Shown: piece after piece, positions 4,591 through 56,893 of the stretch
How the letters are laid out: each line of letters opens with the position of its first letter
How positions within the stretch are numbered: position 1 is the stretch's first letter
From: Alphaproteobacteria bacterium
GTDB taxonomy: Bacteria; Pseudomonadota; Alphaproteobacteria; UBA828
DNA length: 64,000 nt
Direction of reading: 5' to 3'
Assembly: GCA_965214705.1 (NCBI GenBank)
Contig: OZ243972.1
Coordinates: 2,784,001 to 2,848,000, forward strand
Notes under the pieces: generated by a model
The model's input: only the letters and a program-made list of their open reading frames with translations
Told to the model about the DNA's origin: nothing
Databases searched by the model: none
Program-made: the position numbers and the translations under genes

Positions 4591-5496
4591 TCAGAGCTCC
4601 CGTCGCAGATTGACGAACTGGAAGATCAGCACGATCACCGGAATCGAGACGAGCACCATGACCACCGCCACGGCCGACGCCGCCGGCCACTGCAGCAGGC
4701 CCTGCTGCTGGATCAGCACGTTGGCCAGCATGGTGGTCTTGCCGCCGCCGATGAACTTCTGAATCGCGAACTCGCCCATCATCACGACGAAGACGAAGAG
4801 GATGCCGGTCGCGAGCCCCGGCTTGGTCAGCGGCACGATGATCCTCCAGAAGGTGGTCCAGGCCGAGGCGCCGAGGTCGCGCGCCGCCTCGATCACCTGG
4901 CGGTCGATCTTGGCCATGGAGAAGTAGATCGGGCCGATCATGAACACCGACCAGATGATCGCCATGGAGAAGACCATGCTGGGTTCGCTGTAGAGCAGGA
5001 TCTCCGCCGGCTCGTCGATGATGCCGATCCCCATCAGGATCTGGTTGATCAGGCCCTTGCGTCCCAGCAGCGGCAGCCACGCCACCATGCGGATCAGCGC
5101 GCTGGTCCAGAACGGCACGATGCAGAGCAGCAGGATGTAGAGCTTGAGCCGCTCGCTCTTCACGAAGAAGCAGACGTAGTAGGCCACCGGATAGCAGAGC
5201 AGCACCATCAGCGGCAGCACGATAATGGCGATCAGGAAGGTGAAGCCCAGGGTCTGCAGGTAGGTCGCGGTGGTGAAGAACTCGATGTAGTTTTCGAGCA
5301 CGAAGCCCGGCTTCATGCCGTAAGCCCAGGGCTTGTAGAAGCTGAAGACCACGACCGAGACCAGCGGGATGCCGCAGAAGAGCGCCATCACGATGGTAGG
5401 CGCCGCCACCAGCATGAGGGCCTGGCGCGCGCGCTTCTTGGTGAGCGTCATCCCGGACGAAAGGGCCGGGACCGGCGTTTGGGTTACGTCCGTCAC
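4591..5496 (-). CDS. ABC permease, PotB-like
   Basis: PFWTSALIR; IEAARDLGA (EAA loop); PLTKPG. Confidence 0.9.
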   Translation of the reverse strand: MTDVTQTPVPALSSGMTLTKKRARQALMLVAAPTIVMALFCGIPLVSVVVFSFYKPWAYGMKPGFVLENYIEFFTTATYLQTLGFTFLIAIIVLPLMVLLCYPVAYYVCFFVKSERLKLYILLLCIVPFWTSALIRMVAWLPLLGRKGLINQILMGIGIIDEPAEILLYSEPSMVFSMAIIWSVFMIGPIYFSMAKIDRQVIEAARDLGASAWTTFWRIIVPLTKPGLATGILFVFVVMMGEFAIQKFIGGGKTTMLANVLIQQQGLLQWPAASAVAVVMVLVSIPVIVLIFQFVNLRREL

Positions 5497-5556
5497 CTGG
5501 CCTTCGTCCCGCCAGTCATGGCTGCCTGCGCCCCCGTGGCGGTGCGGTCCGCGCGC

Positions 5557-6639
5557 TCACTCGAATACCACCAGCGCATCGTCGGTGTTCCAGCCCACTC
5601 TCACCTTGTCGCCGTGGCCGAGCGCGGTAATCGCCGGCGGCGGCTCGTGCTCGTCGACACGGATCGAATCGCCGCTCGGCAGGTCGACGTTGAACTCGAT
5701 CTGCGAGGTCTCGAAGATGGAGAACGACACTTGGCCCTCCACCGTGTTCTCCGGCGTCTCGCCGTTCAGCAGCAGGTTGGTCAGGCTCGCCCGCACCACC
5801 ACGTGGCAGTCCTTGCGCGCCGGCGCGTCGTCTGCGATGCGCGCGCGGAAGGTGCCGGCCGGTCCGGTGACGGTGGCGACGCCGTTCTCCACGCCGGTGA
5901 TCTCGCCCGCCAGGATATTGTTCTTACCCACGAACTGGGCGACGAACAGGTTCTTGGGGCGGTGGGTCACCTCCTCCGGCGGGCCGATCTGCTCGATCCG
6001 GCCCAGGTTCATAATCACCACCCGGTCGGAAACCGCGAAGGCCTCGGTCTGGGTGTGGGTGACGTGCACGAAAGCGACGCCGAAGTCGGTGTTGAGGCGG
6101 CGCAGCTCGCGCTGCATCCGCAGGCGCAGGTTCGCGTCGAGCGAGCCCAGCGGCTCGTCGAGCAGGAGCACATCCGGCCGCGTGACCAGCGCCCGCGCCA
6201 GGCCGACGCGCTGCTGCTGGCCGCCCGAGAGCTGCTGGATCGCCCGGTCGGCCAGGTCCTCGATATCCACGGCGCGCAGCATCTCCAGCGCGCGCTGGGC
6301 GCGCTCCCTTGACGAGACATTGCGCATGCGCAGGCCGAACTCGACGTTCTGCGCCACCGACATGTGCGGGAATAGCGCGAAGTGCTGGAACACCATGGCG
6401 GTGTTGCGCTCGTGCGGCTCCAGGTGGGTGCAGTCGCGGCCCGCGATCAGGATCTGGCCGTCCGTGGGCTCCTCGAAGCCGGAGATCATGCGCAGCGTGG
6501 TGGTCTTGCCGCAGCCCGACGGGCCGATGAAGGAGATGTACTCACCCTGAGCGATGTGGAGCGTCATCTCGTCGACGGCGAGGATGTCCCTGCCGAAACG
6601 CTTGGTGACGTTGATCAGATCGACGGCAATGTCGCTCAT
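5557..6639 (-). CDS. ABC ATP-binding protein, PotA-like
   Basis: GPSGCGKTT, LSGGQQQR, LLLDEP; ATG at 6639 with AGGGAG RBS. Confidence 0.92.
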   Translation of the reverse strand: MSDIAVDLINVTKRFGRDILAVDEMTLHIAQGEYISFIGPSGCGKTTTLRMISGFEEPTDGQILIAGRDCTHLEPHERNTAMVFQHFALFPHMSVAQNVEFGLRMRNVSSRERAQRALEMLRAVDIEDLADRAIQQLSGGQQQRVGLARALVTRPDVLLLDEPLGSLDANLRLRMQRELRRLNTDFGVAFVHVTHTQTEAFAVSDRVVIMNLGRIEQIGPPEEVTHRPKNLFVAQFVGKNNILAGEITGVENGVATVTGPAGTFRARIADDAPARKDCHVVVRASLTNLLLNGETPENTVEGQVSFSIFETSQIEFNVDLPSGDSIRVDEHEPPPAITALGHGDKVRVGWNTDDALVVFE

Positions 6640-6809
6640 GCCGCTCCCTACCGCTCCCGTGCCCCCGGCCGCCGCGCGACCTCGCCTCGCCAGCCCGACC
6701 ACAAGTTATTGATATTATTATCCTCTGACGCGAGCCAAGGTTAAGTCTAACTGTCGTCGGAGCGCGCCGTCAACTCGACGGCCACGTGGGCGACGTGCGA
6801 GACGATTTG

Positions 6810-7334
6810 TCAGCGGGCGACGGCGTCGCCCTCCAGGTAGCGCGCGGGCCAGCCGATGCCCTGCCATGTCTGAATCTGCACGGGGTCGAGGCGGATCAGC
6901 CAGCGCTTCCAGCTCATCGTGGGCTCCAGGTAGCTCGGGCCGTTCTCACCGTAGTAGCGGATCGACATGGTGCGGGCCACCTCCACCCAGCGGCCGCCCA
7001 CATTCGGCTGCTCGACGATCGCTGCCTCGCACTGGGCGAGGAAGCGTCGCTGCACGCCGGCATCGGAGGCGCGGTCGGCAGCCGAGGATTCGTCGATGGT
7101 CACCGCACAGCGCGGTCTCGCTTCGAGGTAGCGCGCCCAGGCGGAGCGCGCCCGCGGCACAACCCAGAGCGTAGCGCCATCCCACTGATACCAGCAGGGC
7201 ACGACGTAGGGCCAATGGTTGTCGTCGAGACAAGCGACGCGGGCGAGGAACGGCTCATTTAGAAAGCCATCGATCTCGTCCGCGCTCATCTTGCCGATCT
7301 TGCCGCGCCAGCTCTTGCTCTCCTGTGCACTCAT
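6810..7334 (-). CDS. Pyridoxamine 5'-phosphate oxidase-like (FMN split-barrel) protein
   Basis: ARVACLDDNHWPYVVPCWYQWDG ... PRCAVTID pattern. Confidence 0.75.
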   Translation of the reverse strand: MSAQESKSWRGKIGKMSADEIDGFLNEPFLARVACLDDNHWPYVVPCWYQWDGATLWVVPRARSAWARYLEARPRCAVTIDESSAADRASDAGVQRRFLAQCEAAIVEQPNVGGRWVEVARTMSIRYYGENGPSYLEPTMSWKRWLIRLDPVQIQTWQGIGWPARYLEGDAVAR

Positions 7335-7368
7335 CGTCTACCCCTCAACCGCCACAAACGGCGTTGCG

Positions 7369-8400
7369 TCATTGAGTCTCGCCCTTCACATCGGCACCGA
7401 GATGGAACAGGCAGTCGCCCCGCTCGACCCGCCCCGGTATGCGCTTGCAGACGACGAGGCCCGTTGCTTCGAAGTGAGCCTCCGTCGGCGCCCGCCACGG
7501 CGTCTCCGGCGTGTGGATCAGGCCTGCGAGCTGGCCTTTCTCCACCTCGGTCCCAAGCTCGACCACAGGTTCGAACAGGCCGTCCTCGCTGGCGTAGGTG
7601 AAGAAGTCCCACGATTCGGCGGTGAGCAGACGCGTGTCCACCGCAGGCTCCTCGTCGTCCTCCACCGGGCCATGCCAGACGCCAACGTGGCGGAGCACAC
7701 GACGAACGCCCGCCTCGCAAATGCGCAGGCATTCGAGCGTGACCGTGCCGCCGCCGCCCATCTCCGTCGCGAGCACGACCACGCCGCGGCTGATCGCTGC
7801 CCGCATGTTGGTGCCGGTCATGCCTTGCACTGCCGGGAAGAGGAAACCGTAGGGCGCGCCGAAGACCCGGCCGAGCTCGTCGATCTTCTCCTGTATGTCC
7901 GGCGGGTTGGCGGCATCGCGGAGAATCGTGGTGGGCAGGTACATGAGCGAGCTGCCGCCCGAATGGAGGTCGAGCAAGTAGTCCGCGCGCGGGGTGAGCT
8001 CGGTGTCGACGTAGTGGGCGAGCATTTCGGTTAGCCGCCCGTCGTGCTTGCCGGGAAAAACGCGGTTCATGTTCAGCTCGTCCACTGGCGAGGTCCTGAG
8101 CCCTGACTTCGCAGCCGGGTAGTTGGCCATGGGCAGGATGATGATGCGGCCCGTCACATCAGCGGGCTCCAGCGCGCGGATGAGCCTGGTGAGCGTCACC
8201 TGCCCCTCGTACTCGTCGCCGTGCACGCCGGACGTGAGCAGCACAGTCGGCCCCTCGCCGTTCTTGACGCAGACCAACGGCACCGGCAGCCAGCCGTAGG
8301 CCGAGCGGTGGACCGAATGGGGTAGACGGAGATGGTCGCACTGCTTGCCGTCGCGGTCGAAATCGATTTGCGTGCTGAGCCGCGTGCCCGTCTCTTCCAT
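7369..8400 (-). CDS. Succinylglutamate desuccinylase/aspartoacylase family (DoeB-like deacetylase)
   Basis: GVHGDEYEG, NMNRVFPG, LDLHSGG, TEMGGGG; start taken at ATG 8400. Confidence 0.88.
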   Translation of the reverse strand: MEETGTRLSTQIDFDRDGKQCDHLRLPHSVHRSAYGWLPVPLVCVKNGEGPTVLLTSGVHGDEYEGQVTLTRLIRALEPADVTGRIIILPMANYPAAKSGLRTSPVDELNMNRVFPGKHDGRLTEMLAHYVDTELTPRADYLLDLHSGGSSLMYLPTTILRDAANPPDIQEKIDELGRVFGAPYGFLFPAVQGMTGTNMRAAISRGVVVLATEMGGGGTVTLECLRICEAGVRRVLRHVGVWHGPVEDDEEPAVDTRLLTAESWDFFTYASEDGLFEPVVELGTEVEKGQLAGLIHTPETPWRAPTEAHFEATGLVVCKRIPGRVERGDCLFHLGADVKGETQ

Positions 8401-51830: not shown

Positions 51831-51867
51831 TGACTATTCGTATTTCTTGCAAAACGGTGAGGTTCTG

Positions 51868-52553
51868 GTCGCCCCCCACGCGGGGGGCGCGGATTGAAAC
51901 TGTGCACTGCCGTCGTCGAACGAGCCGAAAGGCTTATCCCCTTACATCCGGCTTCTCCATATGTGGGGTGCCGGATCGCTGGGCACTTTACGGGCAACCC
52001 ATTGAGACACGGAAGGAACTGCGACCGTGTCGGATACCGCCGCCGAGGTGATCGGTACAACATGTTGGGGAACCGGAGCCAGAGGGATAAGCCTTCGAGC
52101 CGATATGCACGTCGCCCCCCACGCGGGGGGCGCGGATTGAAACATCGCGGAGGCCAGGCTCGCGGGTGCGGTCTGGTGTCGCCCCCCACGCGGGGGGCGC
52201 GGATTGAAACAACTATCTGGCGCCCGGCGAGGAGCCGGATCCGGGTCGCCCCCCACGCGGGGGGGGGGGGGGGCGCGGATTGAAACATGCGCGGCCGAGT
52301 CCATGGCGGCGCCTGTCTGGTCGCCCCCCACGCGGGGGGCGCGGATTGAAACTTGACTCCACCAACCCGCACGTAGACCTGGCGAGTCGCCCCCCACGCG
52401 GGGGGCGCGGATTGAAACCGCTACTGGGACAGCGAGCACGTCGAGGCTGCGGGTCGCCCCCCACGCGGGGGGCGCGGATTGAAACGTCTGCGCATCCAGC
52501 GCCTGCGTCGTCGTCTTGGCGTCGCCCCCCACGCGGGGGGCGCGGATTGAAAC
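51868..52553 (+). CRISPR. Type I-C-like CRISPR array: 8 repeats, 7 spacers
   Basis: 33-bp repeat GTCGCCCCCCACGCGGGGGGCGCGGATTGAAAC at 51868, 52111, 52178, 52245, 52320, 52386, 52453, 52521; spacers 33-35 bp except the first (210 bp). Confidence 0.97.
51929..52095. mobile_element. 167-bp MITE inserted in CRISPR spacer 1
   Basis: 12-bp IR AAGGCTTATCCC; 8-bp duplication CGAGCCGA at 51921-51928 and 52096-52103; removal restores a 35-bp spacer. Confidence 0.92.
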
Positions 52554-52838
52554 ACGTGTCGTCGGCGGTGTCGTGCAAAATCTGGCCTCATTTGACCGCA
52601 GTTCTGATTGAACGAAGCCGCTACGCGGAGTTGGCGGCTTAGGGTTCGCTAATTTCCGTGATGCTGCAGGTTCTGCTGGCGGGTGTCGCGTGCGTTTCTG
52701 GATTACGCCGAGCGCCGAAGTGCCGGTGAGGCGAGACGCCGGCAGCTTGCCGATCACCAGTGGTTAGCATCGATCTCCGAGACGGTCCGCCGTCGGAACG
52801 GTTCGGCGGCTCGCCGTCGCGATCACGGGAGATCGACG

Positions 52839-53717
52839 ATGACCGAGAAAGCCGCCAACGGGACAACCGGCACCCCTCTTCGCCAGAAGATGATCGACCA
52901 GATGCGCATTGCCGGTCTGGCCGAGAGCACGCAGGCCATCTACATCGGCGAGATCAAGCAGCTGGCCAAGCACTTCAAGGCCTCGCCGGCCGACCTCGAT
53001 GCCGACCAGCTGCGCACCTGGGTCCTGTCCGGCATCGAGCGCGGCCTGAAGCCGACGACGACCAACGTCACCGTCGCCGCCCTGAAGTTCCTCTACGCCG
53101 ACACGTTGGGGAGCCCCGAGCTCGTGACCGGACTGCGCGCCCGCAAGAAGCAGCGCAAGCTGCCACGTCACATGGCGGAGGAGGAGGTCGAGCGCATCAT
53201 CCTTGCAACGCCCGACCTCCGGTACCGCGCCGCCATCGTCACCGCTTATGGCTCAGGGCTTCGCATCTCCGAGACCGTTGCCATCAGGGTCGGCGACATC
53301 AAGTCGGACAAGAAGCTGCTACACATCCCTTCCGGCAAGGGCGGCACCGAGAGGATGGCACCGATGCCGGAAGCCGTCATCCATTACCTGCGCGGCTACT
53401 ACAAGAACATCTGGCCGGAGCCGGAGAGCTGGCTCTTCTATGGCGCCTCGCCCGACCTGCCCATCCGGACATCGGCCCTGCACTATGCCTTCAAGAAGGC
53501 GCGCGAGCGGGCCGGCATCGACAGCCGCTACAGCTTCCACTGTCTGCGGCATTCGGCCGCCACCCATCTTCACGAGCGCGGCGCCAACATGGAGGTGATC
53601 CGCGACGCGCTGGGCCATCGTCGTGCGGACACGACCCGCGAGTACGCGCGCTCGACCGCCAAGATGTTCGAGGGCCTCGACCACCCCGTCTCGGGCTTCC
53701 CGGTGCTTCGCAACTGA
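52839..53717 (+). CDS. Tyrosine recombinase of the integrase + IS91-like transposase module
   Basis: LRQKMIDQM, GLRISE, GKG, HCLRHS.ATHL, LGH, TREY. Confidence 0.92.
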   Translation: MTEKAANGTTGTPLRQKMIDQMRIAGLAESTQAIYIGEIKQLAKHFKASPADLDADQLRTWVLSGIERGLKPTTTNVTVAALKFLYADTLGSPELVTGLRARKKQRKLPRHMAEEEVERIILATPDLRYRAAIVTAYGSGLRISETVAIRVGDIKSDKKLLHIPSGKGGTERMAPMPEAVIHYLRGYYKNIWPEPESWLFYGASPDLPIRTSALHYAFKKARERAGIDSRYSFHCLRHSAATHLHERGANMEVIRDALGHRRADTTREYARSTAKMFEGLDHPVSGFPVLRN

Positions 53718-53993
53718 GGGCGCGTGGCACGCGAGCGCGCCGGCAGCGCTTTCCGTGAGCGCATGGCCGGCCGGCTCGACGCTGGACGGCTCAAGGTCAT
53801 GGCGGCGATCGAGGCATGCCGCACCGCCGTGCTCGGTGGGCACATGTATGCCTGCGAGGGCTGCGGGCGGGAGCATCCGCTCTTCAGATACCATGAGCAC
53901 GGTGGCACCGAATCGATTCTGGCGGTTAGACAAGCTCGGAGAGAAGGCCAGCACCTTCTCTCCGAGCGGAATCGTCAACAACGGAGTGGACGG

Positions 53994-55190
53994 ATGTCGG
54001 ATGGTCCAGACACGACCGCGCTGACAGGCGCAAGTAGTAGCACGATTTATGTCGCGGTGGAGATCAGCCTCAAATCGTGGATCGTTGGCGTGCATTGCCC
54101 GGATGCCTCGGGTGGCAGCATCAGCATCCACACACTGGCTGCTGCCGACACGGCGGGACTGTTGGATCTCGTCGGGTCGGTGCGGGAACGGGTGGCGAGG
54201 GAGCTCGGCGCCCGTCCTCGGGTGATGCTGACCTACGAGGCGGGCTACGAGGGGTTCTGGCTTGCCCGCGATATCGAGCGCCGTGACGCGGAGATCGATA
54301 TCTTCATGAACGATCCGGCGAGCCTGCGGGTGAACCGGCGCGCCAAGAAGAAAAAGACCGACCGTATCGACGCGAGGAGGATGGTTCGGGCTCTGAAGGC
54401 ATGGGACCAAGGCGATTCGGAGGCCATGTCCTGGGTGCGCGTGCCCGATGTGGACCAGGAGGATGCCAAGCGCCTGCTGCGCGAGAGGGACACGCTGATC
54501 AGCGAGCGTACCCGCGTCAACAACCGGATCAAAGGGCTCTTGCAGTTGCACGGCATCTTCGATCTGGCGCCGCGCAAGCCGGACTTCCTCGAACGCCTCG
54601 CGACCGCGCGGACGGGCTATGGGGCGCCGTTGCCGCCGCGTGCGCGGGCAGAGATTGAGAGGGCGGTGGGGATGCTTCGCCTGGTTGAGGAGCATATCGA
54701 GATGATCGAGGCCGAGAAGAGGGCCCTGCTGAAGGCTGGCCGGAAAGCCCAGGACGCGACCAATCGTGACGGGACGGCGATGATCGCGGCGCTTACGCGC
54801 ATCCATGGCATCGGCCTCAATGACGCCACACTGCTGGCTGGCGAGGTGTTCTATCGGGACTTCCGCAATCGCCGGGAGTTGGGCAGCTGGGCCGGGTTGA
54901 CGTCGGTGCCGTGGGCGAGCGGAGATGTCGACCACGATCTTGGCATCAGCAAGGCCGGCCCCTCGCATGTCAGGAAGCACATGATCCAGATGGCTTGGCG
55001 CTGGCTGAAGCTGCAACCGGAAAGCGCGATCACGAAGTGGTTCCACGCCTACGTCGCCAGGGATGCCGGTGGCGGGAGGGACCGGCGAGCGAGGAAGCGG
55101 GCGATCGTGGGGGTCGCGCGCAAGCTGCTGATCGCGCTGTGGCGCTATGCCACCCAAGGACTGGTGCCTGAGGGCGCCATCGTCTCCTGA
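53994..55190 (+). CDS. IS110-family DEDD recombinase/transposase
   Basis: YVAVEIS, YEAGYEGFW, KTDRIDA, IHGIG, AGLT..PWASG, GISKAG, AIVGVARKL. Confidence 0.95.
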   Translation: MSDGPDTTALTGASSSTIYVAVEISLKSWIVGVHCPDASGGSISIHTLAAADTAGLLDLVGSVRERVARELGARPRVMLTYEAGYEGFWLARDIERRDAEIDIFMNDPASLRVNRRAKKKKTDRIDARRMVRALKAWDQGDSEAMSWVRVPDVDQEDAKRLLRERDTLISERTRVNNRIKGLLQLHGIFDLAPRKPDFLERLATARTGYGAPLPPRARAEIERAVGMLRLVEEHIEMIEAEKRALLKAGRKAQDATNRDGTAMIAALTRIHGIGLNDATLLAGEVFYRDFRNRRELGSWAGLTSVPWASGDVDHDLGISKAGPSHVRKHMIQMAWRWLKLQPESAITKWFHAYVARDAGGGRDRRARKRAIVGVARKLLIALWRYATQGLVPEGAIVS

Positions 55191-55535
55191 GGGCACCGGC
55201 CGAACGAACGGGAAAATACAGGAGGTTCCGACGTGGTCGGACGCGGCCGCGGAGGATGCCGGGCAAGGCGTGTGACCGGGCAAGAGTTGGGTCGCCGCTT
55301 GGCACCGTTCTACAGATGGGTCCCGCCTCCCGGAACGTCACCACCGCTTGGATGCGGTATTGGGGTCACGGAGCCGGCAAGCGCCGGAGTTCCGAACCGG
55401 ATAAGAGCTGAGCAGCGTGGCGGATCGCTGCGTGGAAACGACGTTCTGCCTGGACATCGGCCGCGGATTCGAGTGGAGAGATTGCGAATGCCATTGACGT
55501 AGATGAAGCCGGGCCTTGCGGAGAGAGCTCATAAG
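55191..55535 (+). ncRNA. Candidate bridge/seek RNA (target loop about 55274-55322, donor loop about 55345-55415)
   Basis: Two stem-internal loop-hairpin modules whose loop strands match the reconstituted target and the circle junction. Confidence 0.75.
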
Positions 55536-55720
55536 AACTCCTGCCGCAACCGGCACTGTCCGACCTGCCAGGGCATGGCTGCCATCCGCTGGAGCGAGGC
55601 GCGCGCCGCCGAGCTCCTGCCGGTGCCCTACTTCCACGTGGTCTTCACCCTGCCGAGCGAGGTCGCCGAGATCCCGGCGCACTCAACGAGGACAACGCCG
55701 CCGAGGCCGCGCGCTGGTAC

Positions 55721-56047
55721 ATGCCCGACGCCATGATCCGCCACGAGGGACGCACCGCGCCCGAGAACCTGCGCATCCTCGGCGCACGCGGCGATTCCAT
55801 GGAGCCCTTCATCGGAGAGGGCGACAGGATCGTGGTCGACATCTCCCGCCGCATGCCGGTGACCGGCGAGATGGTGGTGCTCTGGGACGGCGGCGGCCTC
55901 GTGGTCAAGCGGGTCGAGATGCTGGCCCGCTCCGATCCCCCCGCGATACGACTGCTCTCCGCGAACCCGGACTACGAGCCCTATACCTGCCTGATCGACG
56001 AGGCCCATATCGTCGGCAAGGTGATCTGGACCGTCAGGAAGGTCTGA
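55721..56047 (+). pseudogene. S24 peptidase (LexA/CI-like) C-terminal domain lacking HTH
   Basis: GDSMEP, LVVKR, LLSANPDY, IVGKV. Confidence 0.8.
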
Positions 56048-56182
56048 GCCGGACCGTCAGACGCGAGGTCGCCGGCGCCCGGGTGCCGGCGCCTTCTCGA
56101 AAACACTTCTCGAAAATCATGTAGGCCGACCGCGCCGGGACCGCTAAAGTATTGACCAGTTGCATGACCACAAGGGGCTGTC

Positions 56183-56422
56183 GTGATCACCGTCAATCTG
56201 GCGCAGGCCAAGGCGCGCCTCAGCGAAATCCTGGACAAGGTCGAGTCGGGTCAGGACGTGGTCATCACTCGTCGCGGCAAGGCCGTGGCGCACGTGTCTG
56301 CCGTCGTCCGACCCAGGAATCCGCTGCCGCTGGGAGACCTGGCCGAGTTTCGGGCGGCCATGCCTCGCTTGCGGCGCCCTGCCGCCGACTTGCTCCGCGA
56401 GGTGCGGGACGAGCGTTTGTGA
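56183..56422 (+). CDS. Phd/YefM-family antitoxin
   Basis: VNLAQAKARLSEILDKVESGQDVVITRRGKAVA. Confidence 0.92.
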   Translation: MITVNLAQAKARLSEILDKVESGQDVVITRRGKAVAHVSAVVRPRNPLPLGDLAEFRAAMPRLRRPAADLLREVRDERL

Positions 56423-56440
56423 AGTCGGCAATCCCCTCGG

Positions 56441-56893
56441 ATGCGCTATTTCGACACCAGTTTCCTCGTGCCCCTCATCCTCCCCGAGGCCACCAGCGAA
56501 CCGATAGCCGGATTCTTCGAAAACCTGCCGGCCGACGAACTGGCGGTCAGCCACCGGACCCGGGTCGAGTTCGCCTCGCTGCTTGCCCGCGAGGTCCGCA
56601 TGGGCGAGCTTGACCCCTCAGCGGCGCACGAGGCGGGGTCACGGTTCGAATCCATGATCGAGGAGTCCTTTGTCGTCTTGTTGCCGGACCGTAACGATTT
56701 CGATCGGGCCAGGGATTGGGTCAACCGGTTCGAGACCGGTCTGAGGGTGGGGGACGCATTGCACCTCGCCATTGCGGACAACCACCGGGCCGATGCGATC
56801 CACAGCCTGGACAAGTCGATGGTGGCGGCCGCAACGCAGTTGGGCTTGCCCGCTACCGAAGGCATCCTCCTTTCGAGCCACGGCGATCGATGA
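56441..56893 (+). CDS. vapC: PIN-domain toxin
   Basis: YFDTS, VEFAS, LRVGDALHLA, SLD. Confidence 0.92.
   Translation: MRYFDTSFLVPLILPEATSEPIAGFFENLPADELAVSHRTRVEFASLLAREVRMGELDPSAAHEAGSRFESMIEESFVVLLPDRNDFDRARDWVNRFETGLRVGDALHLAIADNHRADAIHSLDKSMVAAATQLGLPATEGILLSSHGDR

Follow-up and report, generated by a model that had tools for sequence, protein, structure and literature searches.

How does an insertion sequence (IS) come to lie, copy after copy, between the same two codons of another transposon's transposase gene? This question is raised by a 1650-bp element at positions 53886-55535 (+ strand) of a 64,000-nt stretch of DNA, referred to as the window, from an alphaproteobacterium of the lineage UBA828 (assembly GCA_965214705.1, contig OZ243972.1). 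The element interrupts the gene of an IS91-family transposase, and a first-pass annotation based on the letters of the window had proposed that a non-coding RNA encoded at its 3' end is programmed against the [F/Y]NSC codons of such transposases. The present analysis indicates that the element is very probably an active or recently active IS of the IS110 family with a 3' two-loop bridge RNA (seekRNA), by which it is guided into codons of IS91 transposase genes. The parts of the element and of its IS91-like host described below are located on the + strand.

Extent of the element and its site of insertion

The extent of the element (53886-55535) was deduced from full-length copies, empty sites and contigs of public sequencing runs that lack the stretch. 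It begins with AGATACCATGAGC at 53886 and ends with GAGCTCATAAG at 55535, and its flanks read CATCCGCTCTTC| and |AACTCCTGCCGC, where | marks the insertion point. A blastn search of the own genome (7.9 Mb, three contigs) with the 1650-bp element as query yielded 18 full-length copies, 14 of which are 99.9-100% identical while the others share 96.7, 96.0, 92.1 and 86.2% identity. Further matches comprised three copies into which another element has inserted, a single 3' fragment and a tandem fragment of 165 bp. Since all full-length alignments run from base 1 to base 1650, the boundaries are right, apart from an ambiguity of 1 nt caused by one A common to the left end and the right flank.

Removal of 53886-55535 restores CATCCGCTCTTC|AACTCCTGCCGC, as the first-pass annotation had stated, and this joined form was found at 68 exact empty sites in the own genome (16-mer CGCTCTTCAACTCCTG), in addition to five sites differing by one base. 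The exact deletion is furthermore present in one contig of each of three public runs; the shorter side of these joints measures just 23-29 letters, and the runs probably derive from the same or a close organism, so that the joints are probably not independent of the assembly.

The insertion point divides the zinc-binding domain PF14319 (Zn_Tnp_IS91), whose halves were detected on either flank. The left target half, an N-terminal fragment of the IS91-family transposase (53724-53885, ..ACEGCGREHPLF), covers profile positions 4-48 of 90 (E 2.7e-08), and the right half (55536-55733, NSCRNRHCPTCQG..) covers positions 52-90 (E 2.3e-16), the host copy being truncated about 133 bp on. The canonical host is a 2,672-bp IS91-like element with the same two open reading frames (ORFs), a tyrosine recombinase upstream of an IS91-type transposase; in the copy at G000:C1 around 4827-7498 a 415-aa ORF contains ..CEGCGREHPLFNSCRNRHCP.. 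In the window the tyrosine recombinase gene of the host element spans 52683-53717 (Pfam Phage_integrase and Phage_int_SAM_4). The own genome carries 66 full-length copies of the IS91-like element, 62 of them rounding to 100% identity, as well as split and divergent copies. With about 90 copies this IS91-like family represents an unusually large expansion.

Nineteen IS copies, all oriented alike, interrupt ...CEGCGREHPLF|NSCRNRHCP... at the identical base, with TTC (Phe) on the left and AAC (Asn) on the right of the insertion point. They comprise the 14 near-identical copies, a 96% variant, a 92% variant and three copies split by an IS66-family element. The junction was counted 19 times on the left and 18 times on the right, plus one right junction with T at +1 in the 92% variant (c92). 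There is no target duplication in any of the 19 copies, and the empty sites correspond to the flanks abutted. About a fifth of the roughly 90-copy IS91 family is thus knocked out in the own genome. Together with two metagenomic elements described below (L061 and L062), these insertions support the proposal that HPL[F/Y]|NSC codons of IS91-family transposases are the natural target.

The same distribution could have arisen from one insertion and the subsequent spread of an IS91::IS composite, either by trans mobilisation through an intact IS91 transposase or by recombination. The near identity of 14 IS copies and of most of the host IS91 copies would be in line with such a spread, which is possible for copies sharing a haplotype, for instance the three occupied copies with the left single nucleotide polymorphism (SNP) 155. 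However, the occupied copies comprise nine near-canonical SNP haplotypes and seven divergent copies, and five haplotypes occur empty as well. The host copy in the window is a truncated relative with 76% identity to the canonical IS91-like element on the left and an alignment of 133 bp (86%) on the right. Moreover, the 96%- and 92%-identical IS variants, differing by 4% and 8% in DNA, use the same IS91 site, which is also used in other IS91 variants on metagenome contigs. The spread of a composite would furthermore leave unexplained why the loops match the flanks and why loop changes track the targets in relatives, and it is regarded as improbable. Judged from the many IS91 haplotypes and the 76%-identical host copy in the window, the insertions into IS91 are independent of each other and not one event copied repeatedly.

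Guide strands of the target loop

The 3' non-coding region of the element (55191-55535), which is predicted to encode the bridge/seekRNA, comprises 345 nt downstream of the transposase gene compared to 108 nt upstream of it, and its scaffold is kept in relatives whose transposases are 38-56% identical. According to RNAalifold and pair counts it contains a target-binding loop (55274-55322) with the outer stem GACC/GGTC, two guide strands and an inner hairpin (55290-55306). All strings named by the first-pass annotation are present at their positions: GACC (55274-77), GGCAAGAGTTG (55279-89), GGTCGCC-GCTT-GGCACC (55290-55306), GTTCTACA (55307-14) and GGTC (55319-22). The right-target guide (RTG) was delimited to GCAAGAGTT (55280-55288), pairing with positions +1 to +9 of the top strand (AACTCCTGC) at 8/9 bases, and the left-target guide (LTG) to TTCTACAG (55308-55315), pairing with positions -6 to +2 of the bottom strand (CTCTTC|AA) by five Watson-Crick and two G-U pairs with one mismatch. 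In the seekRNAs of IS1111 elements the complement of the top strand is located 5' of that of the bottom strand, both overlapping at the insertion point (PMC11187229), and the guide order found here is the same.

Sixteen pairs of elements and targets were compared. The RTG forms at least seven of nine Watson-Crick pairs with +1 to +9 in 13 of them, and the LTG (6 nt plus the core AG) forms five to eight of eight pairs including G-U in 14. In a permutation test with 12 distinct elements the own guides matched their flanks at 140 positions; shuffled combinations reached 71 on average and 111 at most, and none of 20000 attained 140. The 3' regions of the diverged own-genome copies are nearly identical except in the two guide strands, and the LTG changes along with the target in the 86%-identical copy c86, in the relative L021 and in more distant relatives. 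The claim that the two loop strands behave as target guides is supported by this covariation.

A scan of the whole genome with the 17-mer implied by the guides gave no site with zero or one mismatch, one site with two mismatches and 75 sites with three, 70 of which are the IS91 site; the match between guide and target thus goes beyond chance. The best match, G000:C1:2977796 (2/17 mismatches), lies in the sequence ..LYFLYYNFCRPHLSL.. (YYNFC) and is unoccupied; based on its motif we take this sequence to belong to an IS1-like transposase gene.

The annotation had also derived an ideal target reading P-F-Y-N-S-C from the guides. Its Y-N-S-C part is supported, since L061 and L062 carry TAC (Tyr) directly before the insertion point in HPLY|NSC targets, with a better fit to the LTG than the TTC of the own genome. 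On the other hand, neither the TCT codon for Ser nor TTC at the -2 codon was seen in any IS91 gene. The ideal 17-mer GTTCTAC|AACTCTTGCC was matched with at most one mismatch twice among 201 genomes (G047 and G091), compared to five matches for the reversed control, a frequency at chance level that does not mark the full ideal sequence as an IS91 feature, and the inspected match in G047 is part of a gene for a Rieske-type oxygenase (AFYNSCPHRG).

Donor loop, RNA structure and core

The second loop, which had escaped the first-pass annotation, contains strands that would pair with the ends of the element itself. The left-donor guide (LDG) ATAAGAG (55401-55407, within CCGGAUAAGAG) has the sequence of the final 5 nt of the right end followed by the core AG. 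Among 13 elements with the right ends AAG, AAA, ATA, ACA and GTG, 90 of 91 LDG positions agree with right end and core; shuffling gave 88 matches at most, and 0/20000 permutations reached 90. The region of the right-donor guide (RDG), GCGGTATTG (55354-55362), includes GGTATT (55356-61), which pairs with bases 2-7 of the left end, and covariation with this strand was seen at left-end position 5, where the pairs A:U, C:G and G:C occur. The exact extent of the RDG is an estimate, and the strand overlaps a conserved local hairpin (ACCGC/GCGGT). Between both guides lies the inner hairpin of the donor loop, CCGGC-AAGC-GCCGG (55374-55387), with a compensatory change in L021 (CCTGC...GCAGG); the corresponding alignment columns 125/154 read GC in eight and CG in six sequences.

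Based on 18 sequences RNAalifold recovers three of the four outer pairs of the target loop as well as an inner stem; each of the two stems includes one pair that has changed in a compensatory way. The five helices are 93.5% paired in this alignment, compared to 86.0% when shuffled (0/500) and 23-47% when slid, and 5 of 17 stem pairs show changes on both sides. The guide RNA thus seems to follow the two-loop logic of IS621, albeit located at the 3' end.

The core dinucleotide behaves differently in the window lineage and in its more distant relatives. In the latter, AG follows both junctions, so that donor and target share an AG core with a 2-nt ambiguity. In the window lineage, however, every target reads C|AAC, with AG (donor) at the left and AA (target) at the right junction; the RTG ends in UU matching AA, and the final AG of the LTG pairs with the bottom strand via a G-T wobble. 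This AG/AA pattern is consistent over the 19 copies, c92 having T at +1. Two junctions deviate by a single base. The right junction of c86 (G000:C3:485333/485334, L053) is one A short, reading CATAAG|ACGCC compared to CATAAG|AACGCC in the empty paralogue, and the right junction of the relative L034 seems to be one A long. Both anomalies fall on the core, at which the sequences of donor and target are different or repeated.

It might be argued that recognition of the target is due to the protein or to DNA structure and that the complementarity between the 3' region and the flanks is incidental. The shared C|AAC of all close-lineage targets could represent such a protein-read core, and it also fits this reading that folding of single sequences gave no significant structure and that a scan of 53500-56000 against Rfam 15 (E up to 10) returned only matches at chance level (CC3552 and tpke11), although the latter result says no more than that none of the Rfam models fits. 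However, all four guide strands covary with their DNA partners in elements whose transposases are 38-95% identical, and elements that are 85-91% identical in DNA have different targets, tracking few changed loop bases. Furthermore, the published IS1111 and IS110 systems work via RNAs of this kind (PMC11187229; PMC11208160). An incidental complementarity therefore seems very unlikely.

Relatives with other guides and other targets

One consequence of a guided insertion could be examined in homologues located at other sites, for which the first-pass annotation had regarded unrelated insertion sites as evidence against its proposal. Such homologues exist, and their changed loop strands match the sites at which they are found, which speaks for the proposal.

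Among the closest, c86 carries the strands GAATAGGCGTTG and GTTCCATA and is inserted in an IstB gene (Pfam IstB_IS21) at DRIVH|NAY. Its right guide ATAGGCGTT, compared with AACGCCTAT in IstB, pairs at 9/9 positions on the empty paralogue GTCCAC|AACGCCTATCGC. The relative L021 (85% identity in DNA) has the guide CCACCAGTT opposite the right flank AACTGGTGG (9/9) and is located at LIY|NWWSLF of a DDE_Tnp_1 gene. L061 and L062 are intact metagenomic elements with 91% DNA and 95% protein identity at ...CDGCGREHPLY|NSCRNRHCP(A/T)CQG... of two further IS91 variants; their target GCTCTAC|A forms seven matches and one G-U pair with the guide GUUCUACA.

Three further metagenome contigs (L058-60, 90.6% identity in DNA) carry the element in the DDE_Tnp_1 site GATCTAC|AACTGGTGG; TCTAC|AACT is common to this site and the IS91-Tyr site. 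The right guide of these three, GCACGAGUU, fits the IS91 site at 8/9 positions and their own site at 7/9, compared to 9/9 for the guide CCACCAGUU of L021. The series from L058-60 to L021 may thus reflect an insertion off target and a later adjustment of the guide to the new site.

More distant elements were detected in 11 other genomes among the 201 searched and in public genome contigs, with transposases of 38-56% identity. A search for related loci with the transposase as the only query yielded three in genomes and six in metagenomes. The scaffold CCG-[10 nt]-GGG..hairpin..CCG-[6-7 nt]-AG-A(U/A)GGG is retained in the more distant elements, and in ten of these elements the guides likewise follow the targets. 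L043 is inserted antisense in the transposase gene of an IS6-family element, and L045 at the start codon of a gene which, by its motif MIGIDLAKN, is presumably of the IS110 type. By eye, L026 and L037 lie in REP-like palindromes, and other relatives are found in sequences without a recognised family. The apparent tendency of the relatives to land in genes of other ISs is suggestive. With respect to the annotation, the description of the element as specialised on another transposon family holds for the lineage of the window; it does not extend to the clade, whose members of 85-97% identity are found in IstB genes and in a DDE_Tnp_1 gene.

The own-genome variant c97 bears on the origin of the guide. 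It is inserted in IstB at the Walker-A codons (GKSW, antisense), where the RTG fits at 9/9 positions and at 12/12 with the neighbouring bases. The guide could accordingly have evolved for this IstB site, IS91 being a tolerated near-match that dominates only through its approximately 90 copies, and the identical A-C mismatch at +6 in all IS91 targets seen would agree with such an origin. Nevertheless, the left guide forms only three Watson-Crick pairs and one G-U pair of eight at the IstB site, compared to 7/8 including G-U at IS91 and 8/8 in the TAC variant with its own guide. Besides, just one occupied and one empty IstB site of that sequence are present, whereas three diverged IS variants and the elements on independent metagenome contigs occupy the IS91 site. 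There is accordingly little to recommend an origin at IstB, and we consider it highly improbable.

Proposed mechanism and evidence against it

The preferred explanation, an RNA-guided insertion into IS91 codons, could be envisaged as follows. In the excised circle the abutted ends would read ...GCTCATAAG|AGATACCATGAGC. The strand at 55280-88 of the target loop would pair with the top strand right of the insertion point and the strand at 55308-15 with the bottom strand left of it, the guides overlapping at the core, while GGTATT and ATAAGAG of the donor loop would pair likewise with the abutted ends of the circle. The RNA-guided recombinase would then place the circle between the TTC and AAC codons of HPL(F/Y)|NSC, keeping to one orientation and duplicating no target bases. 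These codons encode the IS91 zinc ribbon; therefore each insertion would break an IS91 transposase gene. With about 90 IS91-like copies the genome would offer the IS many harmless landing sites, 19 of which are occupied.

At the level of sequence it is demonstrated how the element is built, that it is specific for its site, that the insertions took place independently and that each of the four guide strands covaries with its target or end. Several observations nevertheless weigh against the proposed explanation. Transcription of the RNA, protein binding and recombination via a circular intermediate are assumed by analogy to the published systems, and none of these steps was observed here. The one RNA run with any match gave a 733-nt contig, about 92% alike over 53885-54537, and short pieces elsewhere; the contig represents a relative and is no proof of transcription.

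With regard to the guides, those of the window are imperfect for the target in the own genome, with mismatches at +6 (A-C) and -2 (A-A); the former is present in every IS91 target, both in the own genome and in L061/L062. Two of the 16 pairs (L025 and L034) fit only after a register shift of 1 nt. In c97 and L040 the LTG forms just four pairs, L040 being a poor fit and the site of c97 matching the right guide only. In terms of occupancy, 68 IS91 sites that look perfect are vacant, as are the single-copy site with two mismatches and the five non-IS91 sites with three.

Concerning the RNA structure, many of the stem pairs are invariant and hence uninformative. The first-pass annotation had suggested folding 55191-55535 as a check. 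Minimum free energy folding of this region and of sub-stretches prefers pairings other than the comparative ones and does no better than with shuffled sequences (z -0.5 to -1.2), so that the fold of the single sequence does not pick the proposed structure, whereas the comparative data do; single-sequence folding is uninformative in DNA of such high G+C content. Finally, the AA core of the target differs from the AG core of the donor. A mismatch between donor and target cores would be expected to hinder recombination by IS621.

Transposase, ends and leader

The gene of the transposase/recombinase (53994-55190) encodes 398 aa. It was assigned by NCBIfam NF033542 "IS110 family RNA-guided transposase" with 174.4 bits (cut-off 140) and by the Pfam families DEDD_Tnp_IS110 (PF01548, 33.0 bits, cut-off 29) and Transposase_20 (PF02371, 45.8 bits, cut-off 21.3). 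In an alignment with 12 relatives E82, D123, D126 and S309-G310, residues assigned by motif, are invariant; the first acidic position (E26, VAVEIS) is E instead of D in all rows covering it. A sequence search of the PDB with the transposase gave no match at E up to 1, and a search of the plasmid collection gave just short matches (65-93%) to other IS110 genes, with no close named relative among them. Family models, layout and guide order agree with the earlier assignment as an IS110-family element that has IS1111-type anatomy and a guide RNA at its 3' end. As the length of 398 aa is outside the 330-350 aa given for IS1111 transposases (PMC11187229), the element is described as having an IS1111-type layout rather than as a proven member of the IS1111 clade.

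At the left end a 7-nt terminal extension, AGATACC (53886-53892), starts with the donor core AG and would constitute the right-donor half pairing with the RDG. It is followed by the sub-terminal inverted repeat ATGAGC (53893-53898), the reverse complement of GCTCAT at 55527-55532, which is perfect over 6 bp only (7/8). The right sub-terminal repeat GCTCAT and the 3-nt extension AAG occupy 55527-55535. IS1111 elements are described with 7-nt left and 3-nt right extensions outside sub-terminal repeats of 11-13 bp (PMC11187229), and a repeat length of 7-17 bp is given elsewhere (PMC11208160). The extensions found here measure exactly 7 and 3 nt, whereas the repeat is short with its 6 perfect bp.

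Circle-junction promoters have been published for IS110/IS1111 elements (PMC11187229), and by analogy a promoter formed only at the junction of the circle is tentatively proposed. With the ends abutted, TACCAT (53889-53894) as a possible -10 is located 17 bp past TTGCGG (55516-55521) as a possible -35, which is TTGAC in aligned relatives. An equally good -10 was not found in the relatives with the left end AGATCCT, and the assignment stays tentative.

The 5' leader contains a perfect 13-bp hairpin (CTCGGAGAGAAGG...CCTTCTCTCCGAG, 53934-53966) directly before the ribosome-binding site of the transposase gene and without a T-run after it. This hairpin is kept in all copies of the lineage, in c86 with a compensatory C-G for U-A change (CCCGG...CCGGG). 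The reading frame of the transposase is open upstream through the left end, giving a 488-aa ORF (53724-55190) that continues the frame of the initial 54 IS91 codons. The leader of 108 nt is free of stops and in frame with the transposase gene in the element of the window, c97, the IstB-sited c86 and L061/62; in L058-60 and L021 it comprises 109 nt and is out of frame. The idea that the IS is built for an in-frame fusion with the host transposase was dropped, since the feature is not conserved.

Comparison with known systems

IS1111-type elements residing in other mobile elements have precedents in IS4321/IS5075 (ends of Tn21-family transposons) and ISKpn4/ISPst6 (attC). The targets of IS4321/IS5075 are the non-coding 38-bp ends of Tn21-type transposons. 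These elements share with the present one the IS1111 type, a fixed target inside another family of mobile elements and a single orientation. The element described here, in contrast, targets conserved codons within a transposase gene and inactivates IS91, which is of the rolling-circle type.

ISEc11/ISXne4 and other IS1111 elements with seekRNAs resemble it in the guide RNA downstream of the transposase gene, the order and overlap of the guides, the 7- and 3-nt extensions past the sub-terminal repeats and the lack of a target duplication; ISEc11/ISXne4 also share the natural re-direction between close relatives by changes of loop strands (PMC11187229). The present element differs from them in the length of its transposase (398 versus 330-350 aa), in its 6 instead of 11-13 perfect repeat bp and in its target, a coding motif of another IS's transposase gene, and it is known from its sequence alone.

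Common features with IS621 are the two internal loops, the pairing of LTG and LDG with bottom and of RTG and RDG with top strands, the core within the pairings and a donor formed by the abutted ends of the circle (PMC11208160). Unlike in IS621, the RNA is located at the 3' rather than the 5' end, the guide order within the loops is reversed and the core is AG instead of CT; in the window lineage the cores of donor and target furthermore differ at the second base (target AA).

ISPa11, ISPpu9, ISKpn4 and ISPst6, which target REP or attC sequences (PMC11187229, PMC12288879), likewise use a short sequence present in many genomic copies as a safe landing site. Their repeats are non-coding, whereas here a proliferating IS provides the repeat.

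The literature searched yielded no description of IS91 genes as targets of an IS110/IS1111 element; the supplementary target logos of PMC11187229 and PMC11208160 may hold similar cases. The bridge/seekRNA mechanism itself is already known (published in 2024), and the IS91 gene is a new class of target.

Neighbouring and nested features

An array resembling CRISPR is present at 51864-52554 of the window and ends just upstream of the IS91-like host element. It consists of nine repeats of about 32 nt (GTCGCCCCCCACGCGGGGGGCGCGGATTGAAAC) at a spacing of 66-68 nt, one of which is disturbed by a G-run. Directly past the truncated IS91 fragment, the region 55721-56893 contains ORFs of 108, 79 and 150 aa. 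From reading their translations we take them to encode a fragment of a LexA/S24-type peptidase (108 aa), an antitoxin-like protein (79 aa) and a PIN/VapC-like protein (150 aa).

Each of the three interrupted IS copies contains, at a different position, an IS66-family element (DDE_Tnp_IS66, zf-IS66) that is about 2,750 bp long and bordered by target duplications of 8 bp, namely G000:C2:520096-522847 and, on C3, ~1715128-1717879 and ~687936-690687 (L057). The nesting is three deep, with IS66 within the IS110-type element within IS91.

A partial second 3' region in tandem was detected twice, comprising 165 bp at G000:C1:1873053-1874866 and about 400 bp with a whole second guide-RNA module in L045 (2713-3400). 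These tandem copies recall the extra Ssr9 copies reported for ISPpu9 (PMC12288879).

Implications for mobile-element conflict

The copies and relatives described here constitute a natural, internally controlled data set on the evolution of guides. Among elements that are 85-97% identical in DNA, changes of one to eight bases in the loop strands accompany three or four different targets, with L058-60 as an apparent intermediate between guides matching IS91 and those matching the DDE site. Conserved codons of another transposon's transposase gene are added to the classes of targets, which ties RNA-guided recombination to the conflict between mobile elements. The AG donor core facing an AA target core bears on the programming rules for such recombinases.

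Going further, the relatives could be seen as a clade of bridge-RNA elements that parasitise transposons and whose guides drift among conserved motifs of transposase and helper genes, a possibility that we put forward tentatively and consider rather doubtful at present. The drift could have led from HPL[F/Y]|NSC of IS91 to LIY|NWW of the DDE transposase via the half-adapted intermediate, and on to DRIVH|NAY of IstB. Each insertion of the guest would disrupt a gene of the host transposon, with the guest in sense orientation behind its promoter. If this is true, the element would serve as a sequence-programmed, self-propagating brake on the bloom of a transposon, here that of about 90 IS91 copies, and the combination of an AA target core with an AG donor core would mean that a mismatched core is acceptable to these recombinases by way of a G-T wobble.

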